IMG/VR virus record: IMGVR_UViG_2534681831_000020
Span: 1 to 35,013 of that record
Origin: a virus
Taxonomy: Duplodnaviria; Heunggongvirae; Uroviricota; Caudoviricetes
Direction: 5' to 3' (one strand)
DNA: 35,013 nt
Shown piece after piece: positions 31,097-34,199 of this stretch. Position 1 is the first letter of the stretch. The number at the start of each line of letters is the position of its first letter. Under the pieces are notes generated by a model. The model was not told the origin of the DNA. It did not search any database and worked only from the letters and a program-made list of their open reading frames with translations. A program made the translations under genes and the position numbers.

Positions 31097-31843
31097 TTAC
31101 TTCACAACCCTCTGATTGCTGACATTTGGACGCCAGCTATCCCAGTTAAACGTCACCCACCGACCACCGTTCATGGTCATGCGGTCCATAATCCTCTCAC
31201 CAAGAAGCGTGCTCATTGCGGCATGATTCAGGTTTGTTAACATCCCGACACTGCACAGTGATGCTGTCCGGCGATCAATTATCTGGTGTAATACCACCTG
31301 CTCGTTTTTCGTCTCCCGCTGAACGCCTATTTCATCCAGGACCAGCAAATCAACACTGCAAAGCTCCTGTAAAAATTTTTCCCCGGATTTGCCGTTGTCG
31401 TAGCTGTCATGCAACACGCTCATGACATCAGACACGGTGACGATAATCACGCTGCGCCCCTTCGCCATCAGCCGGTTACCCATCGCCGCTGCAAGGTGAT
31501 TTTTCCCGGTGCCGGTTTTACCGCTGAACACAAAATTCGTGCACCCGGTCATCAGTTCGTCAGCTATGGATTTGGCCTGGCTCAGCGCGTATTTTTGCCC
31601 GTCGTTCTGCACCTGATAATTCGCAAACGAGCATTTGCTGTGCAGAGGCTGGATGCCCGAACGATTCAGGATTTTTTCCACCCGCAACTGGTGATTCTGG
31701 CGGTTAATCTCCTCGCTGCGTTTTCGTCCTTCAACAAGTTGCCATTCCCGCCACTCCTCCACCGTCCGGTACGGTGGAACCGACGCCTGTGGTGCAAGTC
31801 TGCGAATACGTTCAAGAACCCCGGCTGCCGCAATGTTTTTCAT
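31097..31843 (-). CDS. replicative helicase loader, DnaC-like AAA+ ATPase (functional analogue of lambda P)
   Basis: 248 aa with Walker A FSGKTGTGKNHLAAA and Walker B LLVLDEIG; overall DnaC/IstB-like. Confidence 0.8.
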   Translation of the reverse strand: MKNIAAAGVLERIRRLAPQASVPPYRTVEEWREWQLVEGRKRSEEINRQNHQLRVEKILNRSGIQPLHSKCSFANYQVQNDGQKYALSQAKSIADELMTGCTNFVFSGKTGTGKNHLAAAMGNRLMAKGRSVIIVTVSDVMSVLHDSYDNGKSGEKFLQELCSVDLLVLDEIGVQRETKNEQVVLHQIIDRRTASLCSVGMLTNLNHAAMSTLLGERIMDRMTMNGGRWVTFNWDSWRPNVSNQRVVK

Positions 31844-31849
31844 GCCACA

Positions 31850-32926
31850 TCACCCCCTGAATCCCGGCGGAATTTCGGTATCCGGTTCAGAAATATGATT
31901 CACACAACGCTGGTTGTTCGTGCCGCTTACCGGGAGCAACCAGGGGTTCTCAAAATTCCGGTCCGGTCCAAAAAACGTCGTCGCTCGCTGAACAAATTCC
32001 GTTCCCGTTTTCCCGGTAGCCGCCAAGTATCTTGCGTAACGCCTCACGCCATCCAGCATGGCCTCTGGTGGCACCCCCTCGCGTAATCTGGCCTTCCAGG
32101 CACTGAAAGCGGATTTCTTCGGGTTTGCCCCAGCACGCAACGGGTATTCCCGCCAGACCTGTTCGAACACATCCGGATAATCCACTCGTCCCACAGGCTG
32201 CCCGGTGTTTTCCGGGACTACCCGATCGGCTTCCCGCTGAATGGCGGAATCGGCTTCAGGCTGCTGCAGTTGGTGTGATTGCTCCGGCCTTGCGGTCATC
32301 ACCTGCTGCACAGCGCCCGAATCGGCTTTCAGCGCATACGCTGAATCGGCTTCCGGTGTCGTGCCTGCTGGCTGACCAGGATTGACGGTCTGAACATCCC
32401 CTGCCTGGTTCGTGGCGTTTTTTACGCCATGGACCATAGTGTTTTGATCTTCTTGATCTGTATCTTTATCTGTATCTTTATCTGTCGTGACTCGTCGTGA
32501 CATGTGCGTGACATTTCGTGACGCGCCGTGACAATCGCCATTTTGTTCCCGCTTTCTTTCCCTCTCTCGCTGCGCCCTCTTGCGCTCTGCAGGAGATTTT
32601 GCGGTTTGCGAAATATTGCCGTTGTCCTCTTTAAGCACCTGGCGTTTTTCCCATCCAGTGATTAAATCACCATCAAGTACCCGCCCCTGCATCGTCTGCA
32701 AAATTGAATCAATTACCTCTTCTGTCACGTCGAGCGCACTTGCCAAATCTTCTGTCGTGACATCAATGTGACCTCGCGTGACATTTCGTGACGCGCTCAC
32801 CAGGAGGTGGATATACACTGCCATCACTGTTGCAATTGGCTGCCCTGACACCCTGGCAATTGTTCGCCACTTAGGGTCATTTGGCATGTCATGCCATAAT
32901 CTGAGCCAGGCGTTAGCCATACTCAC
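31850..32926 (-). CDS. replication initiator protein (functional analogue of lambda O) containing the origin iterons
   Basis: 358 aa; N-terminal DNA-binding-like domain, low-complexity DKDTDKDTD linker encoded by an AT-rich tract, and two clusters of CGTGAC iterons inside the gene; directly upstream of the DnaC-like gene. Confidence 0.6.
   Translation of the reverse strand: MSMANAWLRLWHDMPNDPKWRTIARVSGQPIATVMAVYIHLLVSASRNVTRGHIDVTTEDLASALDVTEEVIDSILQTMQGRVLDGDLITGWEKRQVLKEDNGNISQTAKSPAERKRAQRERERKREQNGDCHGASRNVTHMSRRVTTDKDTDKDTDQEDQNTMVHGVKNATNQAGDVQTVNPGQPAGTTPEADSAYALKADSGAVQQVMTARPEQSHQLQQPEADSAIQREADRVVPENTGQPVGRVDYPDVFEQVWREYPLRAGANPKKSAFSAWKARLREGVPPEAMLDGVRRYARYLAATGKTGTEFVQRATTFFGPDRNFENPWLLPVSGTNNQRCVNHISEPDTEIPPGFRG
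32440..32815. repeat. candidate origin of replication: AT-rich tract plus two clusters of (T/G/C)CGTGAC iterons
   Basis: Five CGTGAC copies at about 10-bp spacing (32485..32532), four more and one inverted copy (32744..32812), the 18-mer cgtgacatttcgtgacgcgc present in both clusters, and an adjacent tatctttatctgtatctttatctg AT-rich tract. Confidence 0.5.
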
Positions 32927-33032
32927 CTCTTCTGATACCGAATCTTTTTACTCACGAGTTGCCGGAAGCGATTCGATACGGCTATTGTCAGTCAATGTAC
33001 TGCCACAGCATTTCCTGCCGGGCCACCACGGT

Positions 33033-33416
33033 TCATCTGATTGAAACCGGCGATTGCCACTGCGCAAAATCATCAGCGTCTCTCACCAGTCGCTCCCGCG
33101 TCTCCACCAGCTCCCGAAAATAAGCTGAACTGTGGCTGCGCATTCTGGCCACCAGCAAAGGTGGCATTGCCTTTTCGATCGCTGGTAACAACGCCTGAAT
33201 TTTTTCAACTGCATCAGGGGTGTCTTTCTCTACCCAGCGGAAAATTTTCTGGGTATTGCGAGCCAGGGCTTCCGGATGGCTGTCGTCATACAGTTCAGGA
33301 AACGTCATACCCAACTCAAAATAAGCCTGGGTTATTCCAGCTGCTGGAACTTTTTCGCCATCAGGACGCGCCCAGGCATTCATCGCCATGCGGATGTGTT
33401 CATGCTTGATTTTCAT
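33033..33416 (-). CDS. YdaT-like protein (cII-position gene of Rac-type immunity regions)
   Basis: 127-aa ORF immediately downstream of and overlapping the Cro/YdaS-like gene; assigned by position and Rac-like context. Confidence 0.4.
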   Translation of the reverse strand: MKIKHEHIRMAMNAWARPDGEKVPAAGITQAYFELGMTFPELYDDSHPEALARNTQKIFRWVEKDTPDAVEKIQALLPAIEKAMPPLLVARMRSHSSAYFRELVETRERLVRDADDFAQWQSPVSIR

Positions 33417-33681
33417 GAATCAAGCTCCTAGTAAGTGGTTGTGTTAACGTTTTGGTATCTTCCAGCTCGGGCCAAATATTCATCCAATCAAAAGGCCTTA
33501 GTTGCTGACGTGTAACTTCACCATTACTGGCTCGCTCAATAAGGACACATAACGATGCCCCTAACATTTGACCTTTACTCAATGCCTTTCTTAGATAACC
33601 GATGCTAGTACCACACTCACATGCAAACATACGCTGTTCATCTGACGAAAGAGAATTGAGAAATATTCTTAATTCTTCCAT
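33400..33681 (-). CDS. Cro/YdaS-like transcriptional regulator
   Basis: 93 aa, ...CGTSIGYLRKALSKGQMLGASLCVLIERASNGEVTRQQLRPFDW...; AGGAG Shine-Dalgarno 6 nt upstream; divergent from the repressor gene. Confidence 0.6.
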   Translation of the reverse strand: MEELRIFLNSLSSDEQRMFACECGTSIGYLRKALSKGQMLGASLCVLIERASNGEVTRQQLRPFDWMNIWPELEDTKTLTQPLTRSLIHENQA

Positions 33682-33684
33682 AGC

Positions 33685-33780
33685 TACTCCTTAGTAAACA
33701 CAGCAAGAATACCCACAGGTAAACAAAAGTCAATACCCTTGGGTTGTTTACCTTGCGGTAATCGCATCTATTATTTACCT
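33685..33780. promoter_or_regulatory. divergent promoter/operator region between the cro-like and repressor genes
   Basis: Three GTAAACA half-sites (two direct, one inverted, forming GGTAAACAA-N18-TTGTTTACC) and a repeated AATACCC(A/T) motif in the 100-bp intergenic region. Confidence 0.4.
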
Positions 33781-34199
33781 ATGGACAAATATGAATTTAG
33801 ACGACAACAACTCATCAAAATTCGTGATGAGAAATGCGATGGTAAAGCGGTTAACGTGGCCAGAAAGATCGGTCGCGAGCCTTCTTATGTATCAAGAATG
33901 TTGTACCCAGAGGGGAAAAAAGGAAAAAACGGATCGCTGATGATATGGTGGAGATTATAGAAGAGTCCTTTGGGTTACCCCGGGGATGGATGGATGGTAT
34001 CGTTTCATCATCAACGAACACAGCCTCCAATTATGAAACAAGGGTTCTAACGCCACGACAACGTATTTTTTTAGATCTCTTAGACGAACTGCCAGAAAGT
34101 GAAGCGGATAACTTATTAAAAACTCTTGAAGAGAAAAAACAGTATTACAATATGATCTACGAAGAAATCCGTAAAAAGAAAGCACAAAACGCATCATAA
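33781..34199 (+). CDS. DicA/RacR-like prophage repressor; frame interrupted by a 1-nt difference in an A-run (33916..33929)
   Basis: N-terminal HTH (MDKYEFRRQQLIKIRDEKCDGKAVNVARKIGREPSYVSRM, track ORF 33739..33960) continues in the next frame (...KRIADDMVEIIEESFGLPRGWMD...LTPRQRIFLDLLDELPESEADNLLKTLEE, track ORF 33945..34199); the C-terminal LPESE motif resembles DicA. Confidence 0.55.

Follow-up and report, generated by a model that had tools for sequence, protein, structure and literature searches.

The window considered here is the whole of a 35,013-nucleotide (nt) stretch of DNA, positions 1-35,013 of the IMG/VR record IMGVR_UViG_2534681831_000020 (Caudoviricetes), and the element is an integrated lambdoid prophage. 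A gene on its minus strand encodes a protein that matches phrog_3729, 'replication initiation protein', over its full length (E = 5e-258), and an earlier note on this DNA had placed a replication origin inside this initiator gene. The open reading frame (ORF) tool started the gene at a GTG at 32926 (31850-32926), whereas RefSeq starts it at the ATG at 32920, from which gene positions are counted below. The features with which the proposed origin is concerned are two arrays of short direct repeats (iterons), a single inverted copy and an AT-rich tract.

31850 to 32920, minus strand: initiator gene, 356 amino acids (aa), ATG at 32920 (RefSeq start), product beginning MANAW
32756 to 32792, minus strand: array A (upstream), four direct copies, three GTCACG and one GTCACA, with 10/10/11-nt spacing, gene nt 129-165
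32724 to 32729, plus strand: single inverted iteron, CGTGAC on the gene strand, gene nt 192, codons D-V-T
32486 to 32532, minus strand: array B (downstream), five direct copies of (T)GTCACG with 10/10/11/10-nt spacing, gene nt 389-435
32440 to 32485, minus strand: AT-rich, purine-rich tract (proposed DNA unwinding element), 28% GC, gene nt 436-481, adjoining array B, translated DKDTDKDTDQEDQ

On the plus strand, array B reads as CGTGAC starting at 32486, 32496, 32507, 32517 and 32527 (GTCACG on the gene strand), preceded by T, T, G, T and C, respectively. The five direct copies of (T/G/C)CGTGAC at about one helical turn that the earlier note had described were thus recovered, with spacings of 10, 11, 10 and 10 nt; on the gene strand they start at gene nt 389, 399, 409, 420 and 430. 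The copies of array A start at gene nt 129, 139, 149 (the GTCACA copy) and 160, corresponding on the plus strand to CGTGAC at 32756, 32777 and 32787 and to a one-mismatch TGTGAC at 32767. The two arrays are about 260 bp apart, their cores have no dyad inside a unit, and they have in common an exact 21-nt repeat, GCGTGACATTTCGTGACGCGC, at 32506-32526 and 32776-32796 (offset 270 nt). This second cluster had already been listed, but with an exact repeat of 18 nt instead of 21; its own 10-11-nt phasing and the inverted copy had been missed, and it lies in the coding sequence of the DNA-binding domain, not of the linker. Exact GTCACG occurs nine times in 307 bp, compared with 0.19 expected (Poisson P = 6e-13), and the other 34.7 kb of the window contain 21 copies of CGTGAC on both strands. 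When the whole window was divided into 660-nt tiles, at most two phased copies of any 6-mer were found outside the initiator gene.

All these repeats are also protein-coding. Array A specifies the last part of helix 29-45 and, in the DNA-binding domain, the loop formed by aa 46-55 (ASRNVTRGHIDVT), where the predicted local distance difference test score (pLDDT) of an AlphaFold model is lowered. The codons of the inverted copy fall in the turn that separates helices 56-63 and 67-77 of the helix-turn-helix; this copy was found at the same place in many GTCACG-type homologues, and array B encodes part of a disordered linker (CHGASRNVTHMSRRVTT; pLDDT < 50). The copies start in codon phases 0, 1, 2 and 1 in array A and 2, 0, 1, 0 and 1 in array B, which means that all three frames are used and that one and the same hexamer is read as V-T, S-R or C-H. 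We examined the synonymous sites in 23 GTCACG-type genes from different species or phages, aligned without gaps over aa 5-97. Third-codon-position entropy amounted to 0.29 bit in the array-A cores, as compared with 1.40 bit in all other third positions (Mann-Whitney p = 9e-6). The use of all three frames and the constraint on synonymous sites indicated that the repeats are elements of the DNA and not of the protein.

A tblastn search with the N-terminal 165 aa of the initiator identified homologues in Aeromonas, Pseudomonas, Ralstonia and uncultured phages with 38-70% identity, all of them equipped with two arrays and a tract, as illustrated by the following four.

Aeromonas pAEv1818: core GTCACG, array A at nt 211-232, array B at nt 461-481, tract (GATAAA)3
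Pseudomonas P7869: core GTCACG, array A at nt 129-160, array B at nt 388-418, tract GATAAAGATACAGAAGAAGAG
Ralstonia Firinga: core GCAACG, array A at nt 130-182, array B at nt 401-431, tract AGAGAAGAG…
uncultured, MW202785: core CGAACGC, array A at nt 296-318, array B at nt 486-537, tract (AAG)n

A scan of one genome per species provided 80 loci from Gamma-, Beta- and Alphaproteobacteria and from a few other metagenome-assembled genomes (MAGs), and a scan of IMG/VR returned only 100%-identical copies, which added no diversity. To score the phasing of a gene, we took its best 6-mer and counted, over the first 660 nt, those copies with another copy at a distance of 10-11 nt. The scores of homologous genes and of two types of controls were distributed as follows.

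homologous genes, different species: n = 77, score of at least 3 in 56, of at least 5 in 44, maximum 8
flanking segments (control): n = 148, score of at least 3 in 0, of at least 5 in 0, maximum 2
codon-shuffled genes (control): n = 385, score of at least 3 in 0, of at least 5 in 0, maximum 2

Array B was detected as an exact phased 6-mer in 48 of 79 related loci and in degenerate versions in most others; the loci that failed the exact-word test mostly displayed degenerate phased cores directly before the tract. The core sequence depended on the clade (GTCACG, CGAACG, GCAACG, GTAACG or GTGACG, with ACG(C) as common 3' part), and in the sequences compared it co-varies with the N-domain of the initiator across clades. 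Of the 48 loci in which array B is clear, 37 have at least two copies of its core in the array-A region as well. Among homologues, array A encodes an inserted peptide whose length varies. In a Xanthomonadales-type clade, array A occupies a different loop of the N-domain, and the copies of Escherichia albertii and Escherichia coli O157:H7 have 21 extra nt in array A, the equivalent of two iterons or seven codons. As judged from these alignments, selection acts on the position of the array and not on the encoded peptide.

The tract that follows array B is, with its 28% GC over 46 nt, the regional minimum, no other part of the surrounding 1.3 kb being lower, in keeping with the AT-rich tract that the earlier note had seen adjoining the iterons. 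On the gene strand it is made of a 12-nt tandem repeat, GATAAAGATACA, followed by GATCAAGAAGATC. Its translation, TDKDTDKDTDQEDQ, belongs to the disordered linker, and the DKDT-type linker that had been read there is borne out, DKDT being repeated and disordered in the model. In 50 homologues, the 45 nt after array B had a mean GC content of 39%, as compared with 58% for the whole gene, and were 71% purine. They are made of hexamers of the types (GATAAA)n, (GATACA)n, (GAGACA)n and (GAGAAG)n, which persist in genes with a GC content as high as 60-70%, and the tract cannot have one reading frame common to all loci.

Two GATC sites are located 9 nt apart at the far end of the tract (32446 and 32455; about 0.15 expected in 46 nt), and GATC was also observed in or beside the tract in several homologues. 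This suggests a possible input from Dam or SeqA.

The match to phrog_3729, the constraint at the DNA level, the recurrent architecture and the conserved tract all fit an origin of lambda-like logic within the initiator gene, as the earlier note had proposed. Based on these sequence data, we consider it very probable that the lambdoid prophage has its vegetative replication origin inside its own initiator gene, and that this is an iteron origin built on the logic of lambda and SPP1. About a quarter of the loci with a clear array B lack array A; for this reason, the core origin seems to consist of array B and the tract, array A looking more like an accessory element.

The distribution of the parts among related elements provided further information. 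Shiga toxin (Stx) phage 75/02 of Shigella, which has an 'Eru4' unit, is similar to the initiator of the window only from aa 160 onward (65% identity). Its N-terminal half is unrelated and comes with repeats of its own, namely two AAGGGGCTTC followed 250 nt downstream by two inverted copies and an A-rich tract, so that the arrangement of two clusters and a tract is the one seen in the window. Prophages of O157:H7 and of enterotoxigenic E. coli (ETEC) have in common with the window the first ~490 nt of a 561-nt query, i.e. the N-domain and the origin, the similarity ending inside the tract; the remainder encodes a DnaT-domain C-terminus and is followed by a lambda-P-like gene. In Pseudomonas and Ralstonia phages, the N-domain is paired with primase-helicase or DnaB genes. 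In view of the exchange seen among the Shigella 75/02, O157:H7/ETEC, Pseudomonas and Ralstonia cases, the N-domain, both arrays and the tract behave, by their distribution among sequences, as one specificity module to which interchangeable helicase-recruitment modules are attached. Relatives with the same N-domain carry the full DnaT DNA-binding domain (PF17948), which was not detected in the protein of the window.

Phage 75/02 (locus L002) also contains two repeats at 1801-1863 and 2556-2641, one a direct repeat of 29 nt that is exact, the other of 49 nt with 90% identity. Their copies, about 755-778 nt apart, flank the N-domain/origin module, one copy being located in an upstream small ORF and the other in the linker of the initiator, and they may be recombination joints for module exchange. 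In two other loci (L128, from a Serratia MAG, and L138, from Pantoea), ACTACG(T) repeats of either orientation come after the N-domain, at ~300-380 nt from the start of the gene. Their downstream sequence is different (…YYVYF…GISSNPWAR…), and they appear to represent another fusion of the same N-domain.

We considered the possibility that the arrays are regulatory sites, at which the initiator or another factor would exert autoregulation, a transcription block or handcuffing, replication starting elsewhere. Iteron arrays of plasmids serve initiation and control alike, a weak promoter-like match on the opposite strand overlaps with array B, and the dispensability of array A in some lineages, like its inversion in others, would suit an accessory control site. 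Yet, the position of the arrays, 130-440 nt into the coding region, is not that of a promoter, and array B is always coupled to a low-GC, purine-rich tract typical of an unwinding element. Furthermore, N-domain, arrays and tract travel together across different helicase-loading partners, and the 21 copies of CGTGAC outside the gene compare with ~16 expected, a count made within the window. We therefore regard a purely regulatory role as unlikely.

A second possibility was that the repeats have no function as DNA and arose secondarily from repetition at the protein level, or from slipped-strand duplication within a linker of low complexity. The peptide ASRNVT indeed occurs twice and DKDT is repeated (SRNVT and DKDT motifs), and the disordered linker encoded by array B and the tract is of a kind in which expansion would be tolerated. 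Moreover, a separate repeat family downstream, GAAGCCGATT, is in frame and looks protein-level: its four copies (32224-32353, minus strand; spacings of 24, 72 and 24 nt) encode PEADSA-like linker peptides and provide an internal contrast to the iterons. The latter use all three reading frames, however, and synonymous positions in their cores are nearly invariant across genera. Clades that differ in their core nevertheless keep the 10-11-nt phasing and the two-array layout, array A has moved to another loop in one clade, and the tract is not readable in a single frame across all loci. A protein-level repeat was rejected on the basis of the reading frames and of the conservation of synonymous sites, and this explanation as a whole is very improbable. 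The GAAGCCGATT motif recurs in Shigella phage 75/02.

Least probable of all is that the arrays serve, in place of an origin, for partition in the manner of a centromere, for packaging or for recombination: two clusters of 4-5 short repeats with helical-turn spacing do resemble type II centromeres in form (parC of plasmid R1 consists of two sets of five 11-bp repeats), but there is no partition ATPase or adaptor gene among the neighbours, the element is an integrated lambdoid prophage, and the repeats co-vary with the N-domain of the initiator.

The initiator itself belongs to a family without a Pfam model. A Pfam scan of the whole protein returned no family at E <= 0.01, and the match to TIGR01714 (phage_rep_org_N) was weak (E = 0.016; 15.4 bits for a cut-off of 49.8), though it spanned the whole model. 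The protein starts with a winged-helix-like N-domain (aa 1-95), which is followed by a basic helix (aa 110-126) and a disordered linker; its C-terminal part ends in a DnaT-like tail, ISEPDTEIPPGFRG. In the AlphaFold model, built with 43 homologues, aa 1-95 form a confident helical domain with a beta-hairpin wing (helices 29-45, 56-63 and 67-77, then strands at ~78-88; pLDDT ~90), and disorder begins at about aa 130. A Foldseek search of the model against the PDB returned winged-helix regulators of the MarR, CRP and ArsR types on top, with a best E of only 0.2, and a profile search of eight N-domains yielded a match to HTH_Crp_2 (E = 0.01); the profile of the N-domain had no meaningful match among PDB sequences. 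The resemblance of the modelled domain to winged-helix proteins is thus no more than suggestive and, as no Foldseek match fell below E = 0.2, the fold is described here rather than assigned.

At the other end of the protein, the last 24 residues (31850-31921) match the C-terminus of DnaT (E = 0.0015), and the PDB DnaT chains 6aep, 2ru8 and 9zbt match aa 335-358. This similarity suggests that the phage initiator copies a primosome contact of the host to recruit DnaB or DnaC. The Aeromonas homologue ends in …KPPGFN.

Immediately downstream of the initiator gene lies a second gene with a potential role in the same process.

31097 to 31843, minus strand: DnaC-like helicase loader gene

Its product matches NF009043 (E = 5e-153), phrog_50 and the ATPase domains IstB_IS21 and Bac_DnaA, whereas its match to the DnaC equivalog NF005931 (E = 4.5e-89) was under the cut-off. 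From its sequence and position, we propose that it is the partner that delivers host DnaB to the opened origin. YdaT-like and YdaS/Cro-like genes are found upstream of the initiator gene, and a DUF1627 gene is also among its neighbours.

By analogy with the paradigms of lambda (PMC7466680) and SPP1 (PMC6316719), from which binding, bridging, melting and helicase loading are inferred, initiation might proceed as follows. The N-domain would bind one (T)GTCACG site of 6-7 bp per helical turn and thereby form a protein array on one face of the DNA. Five sites would be occupied in array B and, ~260 bp upstream, four in array A plus the inverted one. The bound initiator would oligomerise, possibly bridging arrays A and B, distort the DNA and open the tract at 32440-32485. 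Its C-terminal part, with the DnaT-like tail, and the DnaC-like loader would then place host DnaB on the opened strands.

A more specific and only tentative version, which we find somewhat less likely to be right than wrong, is that this is the bipartite origin of a large uncharacterised family of proteobacterial initiators, in which array A, written into the coding sequence of the DNA-binding domain, cooperates with array B by looping or bridging to open the tract of GA-hexamers. If so, the origin would dictate part of the amino acid sequence of its own reader, and a switch of specificity would require a coordinated change in both arrays and in the domain.

Several points weigh against the proposed origin. 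In the searchable literature we found no binding, unwinding or replication assay for this family of initiators, and the N-domain has no significant match to characterised initiators (none in Pfam; phage_rep_org_N at E = 0.016-0.11, under the cut-offs; hhalign probability of 0.1 with G38P of SPP1; Foldseek E of 0.2). A few homologues are without clear repeats (L161 and L162). Array A is absent in 11 of the 48 loci with a clear array B, which makes its role in initiation uncertain, and it is inverted in a few. Finally, a site of 6-7 bp is short for a winged helix acting alone; what is recognised may in reality be the whole 10-11-bp repeat, or two repeats together.

We compared the arrangement with known replication systems. 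Iterons of lambda measure ~18-19 bp, and the earlier note had remarked that a 6-bp core at ~10-bp spacing is unlike them. This held true: the core is 6-7 bp long, recurs every 10-11 bp and has no internal dyad. Other differences from lambda are the presence of two arrays ~260 bp apart, the location of one of them inside the coding sequence of the DNA-binding domain itself and the nature of the partner, a DnaC-like ATPase in the window in place of lambda P. None of eight N-domains matched Phage_rep_O at E <= 1. The lambda origin lies inside gene O, and lambda-type origins have four to six iterons in one block (PMC7466680), those of the Stx phages 933W and P27 having six. The likeness resides in the position of the proposed origin, which falls within the initiator gene, with the sequence for the DNA-binding N-terminus on one side and that for the partner-binding C-terminus on the other; in the succession, in gene direction, of direct iterons and an AT-rich tract; in the place occupied in the early rightward operon, behind cro- and cII-like genes; and in the joint exchange of N-domain and origin, as described for O and ori (PMC7466680).

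With SPP1, the likeness concerns oriL in gene 38, where directly repeated sequences, together with an AT-rich unwinding element, are found in the middle of the gene for the replisome organizer, followed by the genes for the loader and the helicase. G38P binds two distant repeat regions, oriL and oriR (PMC6316719). In SPP1 the second binding region is ~13 kb away, whereas here the second array is 260 bp away in the same gene, and the SPP1 repeats have units of another length and spacing. Some copies of the E. coli protein bear the NCBI name 'phage replisome organizer'. The protein was not filed as a G38P homologue, the hhalign probability being 0.1, and PF09681 was matched by one of eight N-domains with E = 0.11, under the cut-off; G38P itself has no PF09681 match.

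Iteron plasmids such as pPS10, F, R6K and RK2 have a winged-helix Rep protein and direct repeats beside an AT-rich element, and their iterons co-evolve with the Rep domain; these iterons are ~17-22 bp long and are located outside the rep gene. Here too, directly repeated sites adjoin an AT-rich element and their sequence co-varies with the DNA-binding domain of the initiator, but the core has 6-7 bp and lies inside the initiator gene, with no DnaA box nearby. The likeness to E. coli DnaT is confined to the C-terminal tail, the only part that matches in the protein of the window. DnaT acts in PriA-dependent restart and has, to our knowledge, no origin-binding domain.

Searches of the literature on iterons with replisome organizers, on GTCACG and on Eru replication units found no description of such an origin, and neither 'iteron' nor 'origin of replication' occurs as a term in the papers defining the Eru types. 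The review of phage replication modules by Weigel and Seitz (2006) reportedly may list predicted origins of this type, so that an earlier prediction is possible. The principle is textbook knowledge; what goes beyond it is the use of two phased arrays of mini-iterons, the dual coding in the DNA-binding domain and the fact that the co-variation is clean over dozens of genera.

No DnaA box was found in 31800-33800 at up to one mismatch, and a DnaA-dependent origin is consequently unsupported. In the whole window, near-consensus DnaA boxes (TTATCCACA, one mismatch) numbered 15 as compared with 7.6 expected, 13 of them being on the plus strand and none near the origin. Directly after the AT-rich tract lies another element.

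32406 to 32436, minus strand: imperfect 13-bp inverted repeat, GGTCCATGGCGT-AAAAA-ACGCCACGAACC

Folded as DNA, it has an energy of -8.7 kcal/mol (z = -3.1). It also exists in Stx phage 75/02, in which a T/A pair is swapped and GGCGA/TCGCC stands in place of GGCGT/ACGCC. A hairpin after the tract as a family-wide feature was unsupported: it is present in the lineage of the window and in 75/02, and inverted repeats elsewhere differ, in a comparison made without a control. The same inverted repeat also scores as terminator-like on the plus strand, antisense to the initiator gene, and is close to the recombination point of the initiator modules.

Stx phages depend on phage replication for the production of their toxin (PMC7466680), and for this reason the site where replication of these prophages starts matters; relatives of the module include the 'Eru4' replication unit of Stx phages. 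At least four core variants (GTCACG, GCAACG, CGAACG and GTAACG) are paired with diverging winged-helix-like domains and constitute a natural experiment on specificity, offering targets for swaps. The gene is also a case of overlapping codes: a site acting in cis limits variation at synonymous positions and also shapes one loop in the protein that is itself proposed to bind this site. The combination of phased 6-mers and a tract of GA-hexamers is a possible signature for automatic annotation of origins in prophages of many genera. The origin region matched in 2221 of 5426 complete E. coli genomes (~40%), in up to four places per genome, and in 16 of 17 listed genomes with a full-length match of at least 99% identity the name given to the protein by the Prokaryotic Genome Annotation Pipeline (PGAP) was 'hypothetical protein'.

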